DNA of 64,000 nucleotides from sequence record KC295538; one strand, given 5' to 3'. The notes beneath the pieces are model-generated. The model was not told where the DNA came from, ran no database searches, and was given only the letters and a program-made list of their open reading frames with translations. Position 1 is the stretch's first letter. The number at the start of each line of letters is the position of its first letter. This document shows positions 13,255 through 50,472 of this stretch, piece by piece. Origin of the DNA: Escherichia phage PBECO4. Position numbers and translations under genes: made by a program.

Positions 13255-13283
13255 ATAGTACTACACGTTGTTAGTACTGTCAA
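13255..13283 (-). promoter_or_regulatory. sigma-70-like promoter (TTGACA-17-TACTAT)
   Basis: Minus-strand TTGACA at 13283-13278, -10-like box at 13260-13255. Confidence 0.45.
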
Positions 13284-13290
13284 TATTGAA

Positions 13291-14061
13291 TTAAATTTTT
13301 TCAAGGAACAAGTTTTCGCACTGTTCTTCCCAATCGTATGGGTTGTTGTTATATACTGCCGAAATCAACAGTGGCATACGCAGTGAAGGTGAACGAAGAG
13401 AATCTTCGTGCTTCAACATCCAGTTCAGAATTGCTTTACTACCATTACGGTTAATACCCTTAGATTCTAAAATGTTAGTCTTATTCATCACGTTCTCAAT
13501 GTGAATCATGATATCGCTTTTGGTCTGAATCTGTAAGTCAACGTATACAGAACGAGACATAAGAGCAGCATAGTGAGCAGACATTTTCGTTTTAGCTTTA
13601 GAATCTAATGCTAAATCTTTGTTAGTAATGAATACAATACGACCGTTGAAATCAAAGCTGTTAGGGATACCGTTGGTGCTCAGGTACTTAGAGCTAGTCA
13701 TATAAGACACGGTACGCTTACCACTATCTAGTACTGCTTTGAGCAGGTTCATACCGTCTTCTGAATCAAAGATGCTGTCCATATCATCCAGTACTAATAC
13801 GTTGGTGCTATGACGATTCTTGTACAGAACTTCGTACAGAGCCAGAGTAGTCATTTTACCACTGATGGTAGCTACGTTCCATTCTGCTGCGTCATGAGCT
13901 TTCTGGAGGCGTTTAGACAGGGTGTAAGTCTTACCAACACCAGGAGCACCACTGACAACCATACTTTTTACAGTACTGCTATCGTCGAGCAAACACTCAA
14001 GAGCAACCATCATGGAGTTGAAGTTTTTCTGAATTTGAATGCTACGTGCTTCTCTGGTCAT
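13291..14061 (-). CDS. P-loop NTPase (Walker A GAPGVGKT, Walker B VLVLDDMD), function unknown
   Basis: Motifs read directly in the 256-aa translation; GAGGA SD upstream. Confidence 0.75.
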   Translation of the reverse strand: MTREARSIQIQKNFNSMMVALECLLDDSSTVKSMVVSGAPGVGKTYTLSKRLQKAHDAAEWNVATISGKMTTLALYEVLYKNRHSTNVLVLDDMDSIFDSEDGMNLLKAVLDSGKRTVSYMTSSKYLSTNGIPNSFDFNGRIVFITNKDLALDSKAKTKMSAHYAALMSRSVYVDLQIQTKSDIMIHIENVMNKTNILESKGINRNGSKAILNWMLKHEDSLRSPSLRMPLLISAVYNNNPYDWEEQCENLFLEKI

Positions 14062-14089
14062 TTCGTTATCCTCATCAGTTGATGAAATA

Positions 14090-14122
14090 ATTATAGCAAA
14101 AAGGGCTGACCGAAGTCAACCC
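14090..14122 (-). promoter_or_regulatory. terminator-promoter cassette: hairpin GGGTTGAC-UUCG-GUCAGCCC embedded in TTGACT-18-TATAAT promoter
   Basis: Hairpin 14103-14122; -35 at 14119-14114; -10 at 14095-14090. Confidence 0.7.
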
Positions 14123-14236
14123 TTTTTATAAACATATTTAATACACACAATTACCCATATCAATATTTTTACCATTATAGGTAATAATATATTTTATCTT
14201 ATTAGGTTTAATAACAAAAACTTTTAATTTTTGTAT

Positions 14237-14464
14237 TCAATTTATCATTTGAAAAATAGTATACGAACCACTTCCATCTTTAAATACTTCTTGACTTTCA
14301 AACATAAACTTCTTTCCATCTATTTTTGCTGTTTGTGTTGTTACATCCAAATACAAATTGTAGATAGTGTCAGTTTTTGTGGATTTACATGTTGTTGATG
14401 CTTCAGTTTTTGCATTCACTGTTGTTGATAAACACATTAACAAAACTAACATTAACTTTTTCAT
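14237..14464 (-). CDS. small secreted protein (N-terminal signal peptide)
   Basis: MKKLMLVLLMCLSTTVNAKTEAS... Confidence 0.65.
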   Translation of the reverse strand: MKKLMLVLLMCLSTTVNAKTEASTTCKSTKTDTIYNLYLDVTTQTAKIDGKKFMFESQEVFKDGSGSYTIFQMIN

Positions 14465-14484
14465 TTTAATTAACCTCTTTTGTT

Positions 14485-15624
14485 TTACAAAATTACTTCA
14501 CCAAAAATACCATTGATATCACGTTCAATGATGTATTCACCTTCATGTTCAGCTAAGAACTTTTTAATGGCTTCGTTAACTTTAGGACGATGAATGTTGT
14601 TGAATGTTTCAGTGCAACCATCTCCCTTTTCATAATAACCTTTATTATATAGTTTACCACATAACGCAATTGTATGTATTATTATTTCCAATTCTCTAGC
14701 AAGTTTCCCACCCACATTCTTATGAAATAAAATGGAAATTTCATTACTCCAAAAATTATCTACTTTATATATTTTTTTATAAGATAAGTTTTGTGGACTT
14801 AATCTTGCTTTAATAGTTTTGTTTGTAATACCAGCTTTATCCGAATTTTTTGCATAATCATTGTGAATATAAAATCTTCCAGGCTTGGAAGTTTTAAATC
14901 CTTTTACTGCACACGTGGGACAACCAGAACCAGACAGATGTGAATTTGGTGTTTGTTGAAATTCACCATGTTCTTTGCATATTATAATAGAGGTTACTTG
15001 GTTGTTAATGTAGTCATATAAAGAATAATCATACTTATTTCCGTGTATAAGATGTGATTTTTTTATAAATTCACCTAAAGTTTGTTTTAAAGTTTGTTTC
15101 GTGCATTCTTGACAACCAATTTTACCAGTAGCTAAGTCAGTAATTGTGGGTTTTTTTATATCACCACAATCATTACATACTACTTCAATTTTAGTTCTAC
15201 TAGGAAGTGTAGAGTTAAACGAAGTTATTCCACTATAAGTAAATTTATCATAACCATATTTTTTGTTGATGACACTAATATGATTAATGGTGTAATATGG
15301 AATATTAATAATATTGTAAAAAATCTTCCCATTAAATCCCTGCCTAATAAAATTCGTGCAGGTGGCTCCAATAACTAACATACCATCGTTATTCACTACA
15401 AGTTTGGTTTTTGATTTAGATATATAATCTTGTGATCTATTGATATAGAATCCAAGAACTCTTGGATCATTTATTTCACCCATAATACTAATAGGATCTT
15501 GAGCAATGTTGGATTTTTTTACAAAATTTATATCTTCGGCTTTCATCCACTCAAAAAGCATTCCATGCTCTTCATAAAAATAAACTTTTTCACCATCTTC
15601 ATTAAAATAGTACTGTTCAAACAT
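14485..15624 (-). CDS. Cys/His-rich protein, possibly a zinc-binding nuclease (379 aa)
   Basis: CNDCG..GCQEC and ICKEHGEF...HLSGSGCPTC clusters; AAAGGAG SD. Confidence 0.5.
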   Translation of the reverse strand: MFEQYYFNEDGEKVYFYEEHGMLFEWMKAEDINFVKKSNIAQDPISIMGEINDPRVLGFYINRSQDYISKSKTKLVVNNDGMLVIGATCTNFIRQGFNGKIFYNIINIPYYTINHISVINKKYGYDKFTYSGITSFNSTLPSRTKIEVVCNDCGDIKKPTITDLATGKIGCQECTKQTLKQTLGEFIKKSHLIHGNKYDYSLYDYINNQVTSIIICKEHGEFQQTPNSHLSGSGCPTCAVKGFKTSKPGRFYIHNDYAKNSDKAGITNKTIKARLSPQNLSYKKIYKVDNFWSNEISILFHKNVGGKLARELEIIIHTIALCGKLYNKGYYEKGDGCTETFNNIHRPKVNEAIKKFLAEHEGEYIIERDINGIFGEVIL

Positions 15625-15853
15625 TACTTAAAACTCCTTTCCAGTACTGAACCCGTCCAGCACCATTAATCTTAGCTTGAATCTTATCTTTTTCGACAAG
15701 ACCTTCTTTGAAATCTATGGACGTATTATCGCACTTAATTACATCTAAGTCAAGTACTTCTTGTGTACTTAATGAAGTATTATCTGCAATTTGTTGTAAA
15801 GTAATTACATCAGTACCGAAGAATTCAGCTAATCGTATAAAAGATAGTTTCAT
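15617..15853 (-). CDS. hypothetical protein (78 aa)
   Basis: Track ORF with AGAGG SD; downstream of cassette promoter. Confidence 0.6.
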   Translation of the reverse strand: MKLSFIRLAEFFGTDVITLQQIADNTSLSTQEVLDLDVIKCDNTSIDFKEGLVEKDKIQAKINGAGRVQYWKGVLSNV

Positions 15854-15879
15854 TTGTTACCTCTTGTGTTGATGAAATA

Positions 15880-49198: not shown

Positions 49199-49242
49199 AA
49201 ATTAATTATATCAGTACTGAAAACTATTGTCCAGTAGTATTT

Positions 49243-49602
49243 TCAGAAAAAAACCTTATTCAACACTTTAATTATCACAGAATTTAATTCATGTGGGAAC
49301 ACATTTTCATATACTGTGCGTTTCTGAAATTCATCTTCTTCATCAGCACTTAGCTGGAAGGTAATGTATTGAGCATTTATACTATTTATTATATCACGTA
49401 AAGTGTTATTTGTCCTTTTTATTTCTTCAAATGATTCAAAAACAATTACATCGTCATTTATAATAAATGATTCACCATATTCATTGAAAATGCGAATTCC
49501 AGGATTATCTTTACACCAGTTATTGGTATGGTCTGTTGTTAATTTTGAATTCAAAAATGATTTAAGAAACTCTTCATACTTTGAAATGTCTTTAACACTC
49601 AT
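49243..49602 (-). CDS. hypothetical protein with EDEFQKRT motif (family FQ-like)
   Basis: Track ORF. Confidence 0.6.
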   Translation of the reverse strand: MSVKDISKYEEFLKSFLNSKLTTDHTNNWCKDNPGIRIFNEYGESFIINDDVIVFESFEEIKRTNNTLRDIINSINAQYITFQLSADEEDEFQKRTVYENVFPHELNSVIIKVLNKVFF

Positions 49603-49679
49603 ATCACCAACTTTAATTAAAAAAATGGATGGTGACGCTTTTAAACGCCGCTGTTAATTCAGCTTTATAACCACCCGTT

Positions 49680-49889
49680 TTAACTTACCTTTCGGCTACC
49701 TTGACGTGGGGCGTACAGGCTACTAAAAGCAACTTCTGTAAACATATTTCCACGCCTTACCCTTTTAAATAAAAGTCCATCCGGTTTTCCAGTTTGGTGA
49801 AGGACTTTCACCTCTAGTTTCAACCTGCTAGTCAAGTAATAATTGCCTATCGTCCAATTATCAAACCCGTCTAGGTTAACATTCACCAC
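49680..49889 (-). CDS. questionable 69-aa ORF inside GC-richer structured region (alternatively part of an ncRNA)
   Basis: AGGAAG SD-like upstream, but codon usage atypical for this genome. Confidence 0.3.
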   Translation of the reverse strand: MVNVNLDGFDNWTIGNYYLTSRLKLEVKVLHQTGKPDGLLFKRVRRGNMFTEVAFSSLYAPRQGSRKVS

Positions 49890-49964
49890 TTCCTAGAGTA
49901 CCAGAGATCTTGTTCTGGTTAGCATCGACGTAACTTACACCATATACGTCTGATTGTGGAATTC

Positions 49965-49993
49965 ATTTTATCAGTACTGAACTATTTAGTCAA
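49965..49993 (-). promoter_or_regulatory. sigma-70-like promoter TTGACT-17-TAAAAT
   Basis: Minus strand TTGACTaaatagttCAGTACTGaTAAAAT. Confidence 0.55.
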
Positions 49994-50059
49994 GTACTTT
50001 TTACAAATCTGGACGTTCATCTTTAAACATATTAATATCCTCAGTACTGAATTATTTAG

Positions 50060-50413
50060 TCAAGAATTAATTCGCATTTTTTTGAATTCACCAACCAAGT
50101 ACTTATAGAACTCATAAGTGAACAATGGTTCTTGTACAGTACTCATTTGAAAATATTCTTCTTCTGTCTTTGGTACAGGTGAAGTATATGAAATATAGGG
50201 ATTATAATCTTCTTCTACATAAGTAGAAACTTCAACATTAATTGAACTAAGATCTTTATGTAACAAAATGTTTAATATAACAGTTCGTTGGTCAGGAGTT
50301 TCTCCATTTTCCATCCACTGTAAACACAATCTCATCAGTTCATCCCAAATATAAAATTGGAAGTTGTAATCTTCAAGGTTGCGTTTTATTGCTTCTTCAT
50401 ATTCACTAAACAT
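50060..50413 (-). CDS. hypothetical protein, family FQ
   Basis: TEEEYFQMSTVQEP. Confidence 0.65.
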   Translation of the reverse strand: MFSEYEEAIKRNLEDYNFQFYIWDELMRLCLQWMENGETPDQRTVILNILLHKDLSSINVEVSTYVEEDYNPYISYTSPVPKTEEEYFQMSTVQEPLFTYEFYKYLVGEFKKMRINS

Positions 50414-50444
50414 ATCAAGTTGCCATATAAGTTAAGATACAAAC

Positions 50445-50472
50445 ATTATACAGTACTGAACTATTTAGTCAA
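50445..50472 (-). promoter_or_regulatory. sigma-70-like promoter TTGACT-16-TATAAT
   Basis: Minus strand TTGACTaaatagttCAGTACTGTATAAT. Confidence 0.65.

Follow-up and report, generated by a model that had tools for sequence, protein, structure and literature searches.

Why should one short palindrome recur at a fixed place in the promoters of a jumbo phage and again in its terminators? We address this question for 64,000 nucleotides from Escherichia phage PBECO4 (sequence record KC295538; this whole stretch is called the window), in which the original prediction had noticed CAGTACTG at a constant position in several strong minus-strand promoters and in terminator hairpins. AGTACT is the core hexamer of this motif and CAGTACTG its 8-mer long form. 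We found that the motif is a genome-wide, clade-wide highly iterated palindrome rather than a promoter or terminator element as such, and that the hexamer looks like an undescribed DNA self-mark or regulator site.

By sequence similarity, the window is assigned to a 121Q/Rak2-like jumbo coliphage, its 8-kb segment 30000-38000 showing 97-99% identity to the 121Q-like jumbo coliphages SD-2_S15 (a Salmonella phage), JP4, phAPEC6 and 121Q. The matching region of the annotated relative JP4 is a small early gene block with an RpoD-like sigma factor, a DenV glycosylase, tRNA genes and homing endonucleases. A six-frame gene set based on open reading frames (ORFs) comprised 140 genes and 89.7% coding sequence in the window. 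Whole-genome counts were made in the same-species genome EC22.5-2 (350 kb, ~99% identity to the window), other Rak2-like genera were counted from samples of roughly 15-50 kb each, and the host Escherichia coli K-12 was represented by one 50-kb sample. Site conservation was measured in one genome pair, by a 20.6-kb alignment of the window with fEgEco12 at 82.3% identity.

The recurrence of the motif is beyond chance. CAGTACTG was present 35 times in the window, compared to 0.92 ± 0.95 copies expected from dinucleotide-preserving shuffles (maximum 4), and AGTACT 176 times, compared to 18.4 ± 4.4. An unbiased k-mer ranking of the window placed AGTACT first of all 6-mers (9.4x) and CAGTACTG first of all 8-mers (43x). 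The excess grew stepwise from GTAC (2.3x) through AGTAC (4.1x) and AGTACT (9.4x) to CAGTACT (20x). Because the 8-mer count matches the prediction from its two overlapping 7-mers, the two flanking preferences are independent. The 350 kb of EC22.5-2 contained 913 AGTACT vs 101 expected (9.0x) and 202 CAGTACTG vs 4.4 expected (about 46x), each being the top k-mer of its length, with at least 11 AGTACT in every 10-kb bin. The count against composition proposed in the original prediction thus gave a large excess in both the window and EC22.5-2, and the motif clearly does not show the background frequency without positional bias that would have spoken against that prediction. The copies in the window are distributed as follows.

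1-64000, both strands: 176 copies of AGTACT, spread at 17-28 per 8 kb
3889, 6240, 10031, 10067, 11106, 13971, 15642, 16972, 17893, 18283, 18757, 22016: CAGTACTG starts, first part
23774, 25608, 27778, 29273, 31383, 32849, 33187, 40391, 46518, 46553, 47498, 48297: CAGTACTG starts, second part
48418, 48843, 49212, 49972, 50042, 50451, 52793, 52872, 59457, 61717, 61775: CAGTACTG starts, third part

AGTACT is the sole strongly over-represented palindrome in the window, where palindromes are otherwise avoided to an extreme degree: 24 of the 64 palindromic hexamers have zero copies, GATC stands at 0.47x, and GCGC is absent (28 copies expected in the window, 179 in the 350 kb of EC22.5-2). The depletion that marks restriction avoidance was not seen for AGTACT, which is 9-16x enriched, whereas nearly all other G+C-containing palindromes are depleted. 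GCGC was missing from every Rak2-like sample too, and the G+C-containing palindromes CACGTG, GTGCAC and ACGCGT escape avoidance in the window.

Most copies lie within genes (152 of 176 AGTACT, ~85%, and 24 of 35 CAGTACTG). The hexamer is only weakly denser in intergenic DNA (3.48 per kb, compared to 2.65 in coding sequence), the 8-mer about 4-fold, and the full 8-mer makes up 48% of the intergenic hexamers vs 16% of those in genes. The intergenic enrichment that the original prediction had suggested looking for is therefore substantial for the long form and slight for the core (3.5 vs 2.7 per kb). Its view of the motif as a promoter or terminator element holds in so far as copies are present there, but these copies are a minority. 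Genic copies occur in all three reading frames (66/36/50), each enriched, and the 152 observed compare with 45.2 ± 5.6 after synonymous-codon shuffling (3.4-fold) and 24 after codon-order shuffling (6-fold). Because genic copies exceed both shuffles, codon choice and protein sequence have both been bent towards the DNA word. A peptide or codon cause of the excess was rejected: enrichment extends to every frame and to intergenic DNA, and 45 copies remain after synonymous shuffling.

The spacing of sites in the window is Poisson-like (coefficient of variation 0.91), and no 10.5-bp phasing ladder was found between AGTACT sites. The only enriched inter-site distance is 20-22 bp (30 pairs vs ~10 expected, 3x), which comes from promoters. 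Clustering into hairpins or pairs was rejected as the driver because pairs no more than 40 bp apart are at the Poisson level in the window (18 observed, 18.3 expected).

The individual sites have been kept by purifying selection at the DNA level. Of 56 AGTACT sites compared between the window and fEgEco12, 40 (71%) are intact; the corresponding figure is 43% for composition-matched hexamers (p = 2e-5) and 41-48% for the hexamers next to these sites. Identity at third codon positions is 85% within sites and 69% outside them. In the comparison with the closer relative JP4, retention of AGTACT was 97% against a background of 91%. Turnover does occur: 16 sites are private to the window and 20 to fEgEco12, the commonest change being AGAACT<->AGTACT (~7 of 24 single-base differences). 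The original prediction had placed the function of the motif in the DNA, and this is borne out by promoter copies upstream of the transcription start, by symmetric flanks and by the conserved synonymous positions.

The flanks of AGTACT show two-fold symmetry. At -1, C (with G at +1) occupies 45-46% of sites in the 121Q and RaK2 lineages but is only weakly preferred in BF, XaC1 and GAP32; in every lineage G is the base avoided most at -1 (7-15% of sites), and at -3 it is present at ~14%. Since only the 121Q and RaK2 lineages have a strong C...G on either side, it is the hexamer AGTACT that is conserved across genera. One-base deviants of the 8-mer are over-represented 12.7x at positions 1/8, 4.0x at 2/7 and 1.3x at 3-6, and because they concentrate at the outer positions the motif has a nested core.

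The excess is a property of the whole clade, as the following values for AGTACT show.

JP4: 9.8x
fEgEco12: 9.1x
RaK2: 12.3x
GAP32: 10.8x
Serratia phage BF: 10-16x
Xanthomonas phage XaC1: 10x
Salmonella phage Munch: 9x

Every Rak2-like genus sampled had an excess of 9-16x, and the hosts of these motif-rich phages include Escherichia, Klebsiella, Cronobacter, Serratia, Salmonella and Xanthomonas. Because their sigma factors are only 31-44% identical to that of the window, the trait is old and actively maintained. The more distant relative PA5oct had 0 AGTACT in its sample (3.5 expected), ICP1 showed no excess, and the unrelated Escherichia phage muut (37734-58708) had 0 copies in 21 kb vs 7.0 expected, which amounts to avoidance. 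The depletion in muut, whose C5 methyltransferase is 51% identical to the one in the window, would fit restriction pressure on AGTACT among E. coli populations. The K-12 sample held 3 AGTACT (0.06 per kb), ~40-fold below the same-species phage genome. A phage or host factor or a methylation target, as the original prediction had put it, is still the best class of explanation; its host-specific variant is unlikely, a Xanthomonas phage having the same excess.

Density is graded along the genome. The termini of fEgEco12 have been experimentally confirmed, and its direct terminal repeat spans 20,993 bp (PMC13070987). This repeat contains 138 AGTACT (6.6 per kb, 23x expectation) and 40 octamers, and the following 24 kb have 2.2 AGTACT per kb; the same density step was seen at ~25 kb in Serratia BF. 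EC22.5-2 has a dense block with 56-69 sites per 10 kb, 23-38 per 10 kb elsewhere up to ~150 kb and after ~300 kb, and 11-24 per 10 kb in the late regions at ~150-300 kb. Two AGTACT 'deserts' lie just past the fEgEco12 repeat (21000-27000 and 30000-36000, with 2 and 0 copies per 6 kb vs ~15 typical); they consist of back-to-back ORFs of ~70 amino acids (aa) at 29-34% G+C and may be recently acquired or fast-evolving modules.

All promoter coordinates of the original prediction proved correct on the minus strand, and more promoters of the same kind were found.

13255-13283, minus strand: two-copy promoter TTGACAGTACT-aacaacgtg-TAGTACTAT, upstream of gene 12887-13225; the 3′ end of the -35 falls within one copy and the -10 hexamer (TACTAT) within the other
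18277-18304, minus strand: promoter TTGACA-aacacatt-CAGTACTG-TATAAT, 16-bp spacer
28867-28894, minus strand: promoter TTGACA-N8-TAGTACTG-TATAAT; the orthologous fEgEco12 promoter keeps the motif
32832-32860, minus strand: promoter TTGACAGTACTG-N11-TATTAT, the motif overlapping the 3′ end of the -35 hexamer
33181-33208, minus strand: promoter TTGACA-taagatat-CAGTACTG-TATAAT, with an identical orthologous promoter in fEgEco12
49205-49233, minus strand: promoter TGGACA-N9-CAGTACTG-a-TATAAT, TG at the canonical extended -10, upstream of the tRNA cluster
49965-49993, minus strand: variant promoter TTGACT-aaatagtt-CAGTACTG-a-TAAAAT
50034-50063, minus strand: weaker promoter-like cassette copy TTGACT-aaataatt-CAGTACTG-ag-GATATT, 9/12 consensus matches
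50445-50472, minus strand: promoter TTGACT-aaatagtt-CAGTACTG-TATAAT

Because the promoters at 49965 and 50445 have the same spacer, they are paralogous copies. The JP4 ortholog of the promoter at 18277-18304 reads AGTACG, so this copy is not strictly conserved. The fixed register claimed in the original prediction is non-random: of the 96 TTGAC[AT] hexamers in the window, 6 are followed by AGTACT starting exactly 15 bp downstream, compared to ~0.26 predicted from site density (Poisson p ~3e-7). Counting any register, ~12 of the 96 carry the motif, and such promoters are rarer outside the terminal repeat.

The promoters of the window are thus outlying members of a large early-promoter family. 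In the fEgEco12 repeat, small genes follow one another, each behind a sigma-70-type promoter of its own, and most of these promoters carry the motif in a fixed register. Class A reads TTGACA-N8-nAGTACTG-TATAAT or, with a 17-bp spacer, ...AGTACTGg-CATAAT, and AGTACT stands at +15 from 17 of the 41 TTGAC[AT] hexamers in the repeat. Class B, with 19 promoters in the repeat, reads aaaaAGTAC|TTGCAn-N16-gcgTATAAT, followed by a conserved leader and hairpin. Minor registers in the repeat are TTGACAGTACT, seen 5 times, and AGTACTaTTGACA, and some promoters there have two copies ~20-22 bp apart; the two-copy architecture of 13255 recurs at 15554 and 15830. Across the terminal repeats of fEgEco12, EC22.5-2 and Serratia BF, promoters carry AGTACT at +15, +5, -5 or -7 counted from the -35 hexamer and at -7 counted from the -10; the window gives a weaker signal. 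Registers in Serratia BF are related but different (AGTAC|TTGAC, 11 of 51; AGTACTn|TATAAT, 11 of 65). The TG of the motif falls at the canonical extended -10 (-15/-14) in 17-bp-spacer variants (AGTACTGg-CATAAT; 49205 and 49965 in the window) and abuts TATAAT at -14/-13, one base off the canonical position, in the 16-bp-spacer class. Because the several registers all lie within the RNA polymerase footprint, modulation or occlusion is favoured over a single activator position. A LexA box was rejected: TACTGTATAAT resembles a half-site, but ACAG is absent 8 bp downstream.

In class B promoters (fEgEco12 1658-20110), the leader TATAAT-gttttacatc is followed by a G+C-rich hairpin, gagagCGGGAAc...tTCCCGct, just before the ribosome-binding site, a conserved structure of the 5′ untranslated region.

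The hairpin at 10758 and those of a paralog array are indeed built on the motif, as inverted repeats of (C)CAGTAC(T), with the array hairpins lying outside the span given in the original prediction. The array consists of nine tandem paralog genes for RCC1-like beta-propeller repeats (PF25390, PF00415; ~300-430 aa; 88-10100, plus strand).

1396-1414, plus strand: terminator GCCAGTAC-act-GTACTGGC with T-run, behind an RCC1-like paralog gene, free energy (dG) -11.2
2616-2634, plus strand: terminator, copy of the 1396 hairpin
3880-3897, plus strand: terminator CCAGTACT-tc-AGTACTGG, two full motif copies
6355-6373, plus strand: terminator GCCAGTAC-tct-GTACTGGC
7608-7624, plus strand: degenerate terminator copy CCAGTAC-aga-GTGCTGG
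8883-8901, plus strand: terminator GCCAGTAT-ttt-GTACTGGC, folding on both strands
10758-10777, plus strand: hairpin CCAGTACT-taat-AGTACTGG, then the T-run ATTTTTTA, at the end of the plus-strand gene block, dG -10.6
48294-48307, both strands: perfect 14-bp palindrome ATTCAGTACTGAAT, non-coding, beside tRNA genes
48415-48428, both strands: second ATTCAGTACTGAAT, 121 bp from the first
54666-54682, minus strand: terminator-like hairpin CCCAGT-caagt-ACTGGG containing AGTACT

In all, seven copies of GCCAGTAC...GTACTGGC terminators stand behind several genes of the array. They are copies of one another, and the hairpins follow from the self-complementarity of the motif. The main early-region terminator family, GGGTTGACTTCGGTCAGCCC, is without the motif.

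Highly iterated palindromes have a cellular precedent in HIP1 of cyanobacteria, whose hyper-abundant, conserved sites are recognised by two orphan methyltransferases and whose function is still debated (PMC4390886, PMC5861425, bioRxiv 10.64898/2026.06.24.733823). AGTACT has the sequence statistics that define such a palindrome. Like HIP1 (GCGATCGC), it is a short palindromic word in great excess both within and outside genes, built on a nested core (CGATCG/GATC in HIP1, AGTACT/GTAC in the phage); one-base deviants are biased outwards, sites are conserved between genomes beyond background, which has been read as selection, and two orphan DNA methyltransferases co-occur with it. The phage case differs in being viral and in its A+T-rich motif, and its excess (hexamer 9-16x, 8-mer ~46x) is at the low end of the 15-300x of HIP1. 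Furthermore, the phage methyltransferases are only candidates for the motif, one of them not being universal in the clade, and neither fixed promoter registers nor concentration in a terminal repeat has been described for HIP1. Neither a viral highly iterated palindrome nor AGTACT had been described in the Rak2, 121Q, GAP32 and CBB literature that we searched; the CBB supplement lists promoters and one AGTACT-based terminator, uncommented.

The DNA uptake sequences (DUS) of Neisseria, the uptake signal sequences (USS) of Haemophilus and Chi are likewise short words, many-fold over-represented genome-wide and within genes, that serve a protein machine as species-specific marks. Inverted pairs of DUS or USS, which are frequent, double as terminators, paralleled by the CCAGTACT...AGTACTGG hairpins. 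These words are asymmetric, 8-12 nt long, orientation-dependent in the case of Chi, and have known cellular readers (ComP, RecBCD), whereas the phage word is a 6-bp palindrome in a virulent phage. E. coli Chi itself, with 0 and 2 copies on the two strands of the window, showed no enrichment and was discarded as a candidate.

Taken together, we tentatively favour, at somewhat under an even chance, a selected DNA-level mark with a symmetric phage-encoded reader that also acts at early promoters. AGTACT would be the recognition site of this two-fold-symmetric reader, and its dense reading would set phage DNA apart from host DNA. At promoter-embedded copies, reading could modulate or occlude host RNA polymerase, so that early promoters would be more or less active according to how the DNA is marked or how much reader is present. 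Where the motif abuts the -10, its TG may act as an extended -10 element; other copies overlap the upstream or the downstream edge of the -35, and in promoters that combine both arrangements the two copies are ~21 bp apart. Pairs of copies are reused as terminator stems.

The most likely form of such reading, though again one we would put a little short of even, is a methyl mark set by one of two orphan phage methyltransferases. It is favoured because the conserved unit is a discrete, Type II-like 6 bp, because orphan methyltransferases are encoded, because other palindromes are purged and because HIP1 provides a precedent. AGTACT is a known Type II specificity (ScaI/Eco255I). A Type II restriction-modification system has the identical 6-bp palindrome, and the orphan methyltransferases and the avoidance by muut fit it as well; the differences are that phages normally deplete such targets, which are here 9-16x enriched and conserved, and that no ScaI-type endonuclease was among the Pfam matches listed. 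Because the genome purges other palindromes and muut avoids AGTACT, ~900 unprotected copies would be hard to sustain.

61340-62200, minus strand: orphan C5-cytosine DNA methyltransferase, candidate writer, 285 aa, Pfam PF00145 (E = 7e-38)

The C5 gene itself holds two CAGTACTG, at 61717 and 61775. Its product has a small DNMT3-like target-recognition region, the closest solved structures are the catalytic domains of DNMT3A/B/C, and the enzyme is conserved in 121Q-like phages, CBB, GAP32, RaK2 and XbC2. The second orphan enzyme, a 179-aa Dam-family methyltransferase (PF05869; EC22.5-2 91160-91663), was found in all sampled genera, but its homologues in Lactococcus and Staphylococcus phages occur without AGTACT excess, which makes the phyletic test uninformative. 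Because fEgEco12 DNA is cut normally by ten restriction enzymes (PMC13070987), global hypermodification and non-specific adenine methylation are excluded.

Several observations weigh against this favoured reading. In Serratia BF the syntenic slot lacks the C5 enzyme while its flanking genes are in place, and the organism tallies for Serratia, Yersinia and Munch-like phages do not include the enzyme; it is probably absent from Eneladusvirus and Munch-like phages, which keep the 9-16x excess. Relatives of either enzyme (37-55% identity) in other phages, including 70 IMG/VR contigs, were never accompanied by AGTACT excess. A link between the C5 enzyme and the motif was accordingly not supported by phyletic pattern, given the BF slot and the relatives in muut, ICP1 and the 70 contigs. 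The small size of both enzymes (285 and 179 aa) suggests a short or loose specificity and not a 6-bp site. Gains and losses of sites showed no dominant C-to-T signature of 5-methylcytosine deamination, in a comparison of low power with only ~24 events. No helix-turn-helix protein, DNA-binding regulator or ScaI-type nuclease was among the Pfam matches listed for ~440 ORFs (140 from the window and ~300 further), of which the relevant ones were DksA/TraR, ParE-like, a TnsA-like endonuclease N-terminal domain and the two methyltransferases; for one batch, 25 of its 35 families were listed, and most early proteins had no match. Only ~12-40% of strong promoters carry the motif, and those of GAP32 and CBB are largely without it. 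Finally, the self-marking and promoter-timing steps are ones that we only infer.

A helix-turn-helix protein beside the sigma-factor gene of GAP32 was rejected as the reader because it is not conserved. Among mid-genome ORFs of EC22.5-2 (~100-175 kb), we observed a TnsA-like restriction-fold endonuclease N-terminal domain (PF08722, E = 2e-16), a candidate sequence-specific DNA enzyme, as well as WGR, CapR-homology and SIR2 domains. Some IMG/VR contigs with relatives of the C5 enzyme have over-represented palindromes of their own (for example AGATCT, 28 vs 5.7 expected; GGATCC, 16 vs 2.8; TCCGGA, 13 vs 2.9; TACGTA, ~14 vs 3.8). Iterated palindromes may therefore be commoner in methyltransferase-carrying phages, only contigs with the enzyme having been examined.

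The alternative that survives best, which we regard as rather unlikely, is a non-enzymatic dimeric phage protein, made early or injected, that would bind AGTACT, repress early promoters by occluding the -35/-10 and coat or organise the genome at ~900 other sites. The motif does occupy fixed, classical operator positions overlapping core promoter elements (in the spacer beside the -10 and over the -35), and its several registers fit occlusion better than activation. Such a protein would also suit the paired sites 20-22 bp apart, the graded, lineage-dependent flank preference (C at -1, T at -3), which resembles a binding energy, the 14-bp palindromes ATTCAGTACTGAAT in non-coding DNA and the threefold higher share of the full 8-mer among intergenic hexamers (48 vs 16%). 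The motif is, however, not mainly confined to regulatory regions (152 of 176 genic), and a pure repressor would not need the ~85% of sites that are coding and conserved there. The early proteins are without a detected DNA-binding domain (Pfam), the phasing ladder is absent, and the discrete 6-bp core that alone is conserved across genera resembles an enzyme specificity. A parallel to such operators is offered by the stoperators of cluster A mycobacteriophages, which occur in many copies scattered over a phage genome and are 13-14 bp long, asymmetric, oriented with transcription, mostly intergenic and bound by a known repressor. Both are short repeated sites at the -35, spacer or -10 of many phage promoters with tens of copies outside promoters, and the phage motif differs in its ~900 palindromic, mostly genic copies. 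A binding protein and the methyl mark are not mutually exclusive.

We consider it improbable that the motif is simply a building block of strong promoters and terminators, with TG as extended -10, AAAAAGTA as UP-like or -35-proximal context, self-complementary G+C-containing arms as stems and the genic copies as by-products. TG does lie exactly at the extended -10 in the 17-bp-spacer variants, and the paralog-array terminators are made of CCAGTAC arms. Class B has an A-tract and then GTA directly upstream of the -35, resembling the proximal subsite of the UP element, AAAAAARNR. This explanation leaves the 152 genic copies in all frames, their 3.4x excess over the synonymous shuffle and the conserved synonymous positions unaccounted for. 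TG is one base off in the 16-bp-spacer class, many equally strong promoters and the GGGTTGACTTCGGTCAGCCC terminators lack the motif, and GAP32 and CBB show the genome-wide excess without promoter registers.

A neutral origin has a similarly small chance of being right; here the sites would be by-products of a directional mutation or repair bias, for instance methylation-linked repair of the very-short-patch type that turns near-matches into AGTACT. Elhai is said to have proposed a repair bias as the origin of HIP1. Two orphan methyltransferases are encoded, the fEgEco12 deserts (21-27 and 30-36 kb) look like DNA not yet converted, and one-base deviants of the 8-mer concentrate at its outer positions, a bias shared with HIP1 (PMC4390886). 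Vsr-like conversion predicts a depletion of one-mismatch precursors and was rejected, because sequences one mismatch away from AGTACT are 1.4x over-represented, both in the window and across the genome, which fits decaying remnants of selected sites; the deamination products AGTATT/AATACT stand at 1.07-1.22x. The conservation of sites in place is far above background, the kind of evidence that Xu et al. used against repair models for HIP1 (PMC5861425), and the fixed promoter registers and terminal-repeat gradient point to function.

A host-factor site or decoy, in which the copies would bind or titrate a host protein such as a SlmA-type nucleoid-occlusion factor, or soak up a host defence nuclease, is very improbable. 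The SlmA-binding sequence GTGAGTACTCAC, likewise a palindrome scattered over a genome, has the same hexamer at its centre, density is highest in the terminal repeat, assumed to be perhaps the first DNA to enter the cell, and the contrast with the host chromosome sample is ~40-fold. The SlmA site was nevertheless rejected because its required GTG...CAC flanks are the opposite of those in the phage, where G is most avoided at -1 and rare at -3; the chromosome, moreover, has only tens of SlmA sites. A Xanthomonas phage, with a host from another order, shows the same excess, and unrelated coliphages of the same hosts lack it, muut even avoiding the site. Least probable of all is a signal in RNA, with AGUACU as a processing site, stability or structural element: the palindrome is present in RNA from either strand and paired copies make hairpins at gene ends, but promoter copies lie upstream of the transcription start, flanks are symmetric although almost all genes are on one strand, close pairs are enriched only at promoter spacing, and Rfam finds only tRNAs in the window.

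Other features of the window lie apart from the motif or border on it. Six tRNA genes (Thr, Asn, Met, Ser-GCU, Ser-UGA and Gly) are clustered at 47837-52112 on the minus strand, with motif-bearing promoters in between and a borderline tRNA-like Rfam match at 50838-50916 within the cluster region. Downstream of the sigma-factor gene, ~650 bp (34941-35591) hold no confident ORF; only ORFs of 36-53 aa are annotated there in related records, an Rfam search returned nothing, and the stretch is bounded at 35560-35589 by a perfect bidirectional terminator, AAAAAAGGTTGGC-ttat-GCCAACCTTTTTT. A repeated terminator-promoter cassette without AGTACT, AAGGGTTGACTTCGGTCAGCCCTTTTTGCTATAAT, has a terminator hairpin that includes the -35 of the next promoter, so that signals for termination and re-initiation overlap; it is also present in the fEgEco12 repeat and among the listed CBB terminators.

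14090-14122, minus strand: cassette AAGGGTTGACTTCGGTCAGCCCTTTTTGCTATAAT
15880-15912, minus strand: cassette AAGGGTTGACTTCGGTCAGCCCTTTTTGCTATAAT
16804-16836, minus strand: cassette AAGGGTTGACTTCGGTCAGCCCTTTTTGCTATAAT
21002-21033, minus strand: cassette AAGGGTTGACTTCGGTCAGCCCTTTTTGCTATAAT
22105-22122, minus strand: cassette AAGGGTTGACTTCGGTCAGCCCTTTTTGCTATAAT
23669-23702, minus strand: cassette AAGGGTTGACTTCGGTCAGCCCTTTTTGCTATAAT
23851-23883, minus strand: cassette AAGGGTTGACTTCGGTCAGCCCTTTTTGCTATAAT
27093-27124, minus strand: cassette AAGGGTTGACTTCGGTCAGCCCTTTTTGCTATAAT

For the Rak2-like clade, AGTACT offers a one-line diagnostic in metagenomes, and restriction by a ScaI-type enzyme, or its blockage, is predicted to be informative on the modification state of these therapeutic-candidate phages. 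The function of the highly iterated palindromes of cyanobacteria is debated after 30 years, and the phage provides a small genome in a tractable host for direct tests. Should AGTACT prove to be a self-mark, it would reveal how giant phages whose bases are unmodified tell their own DNA from that of the host and time their earliest promoters. A further-reaching version, which we hold to be unlikely, is a sequence-encoded 'self barcode' of Rak2-like phages, ~40-100x denser than in the host sample, by which a phage reader (a methyltransferase-written mark or a binding protein) would tell phage from host DNA and would also switch the early promoters of the terminal repeat on or off. Such a barcode would be a viral counterpart of HIP1, DUS or Chi with built-in regulation, and an alternative to base hypermodification for the labelling of a genome.

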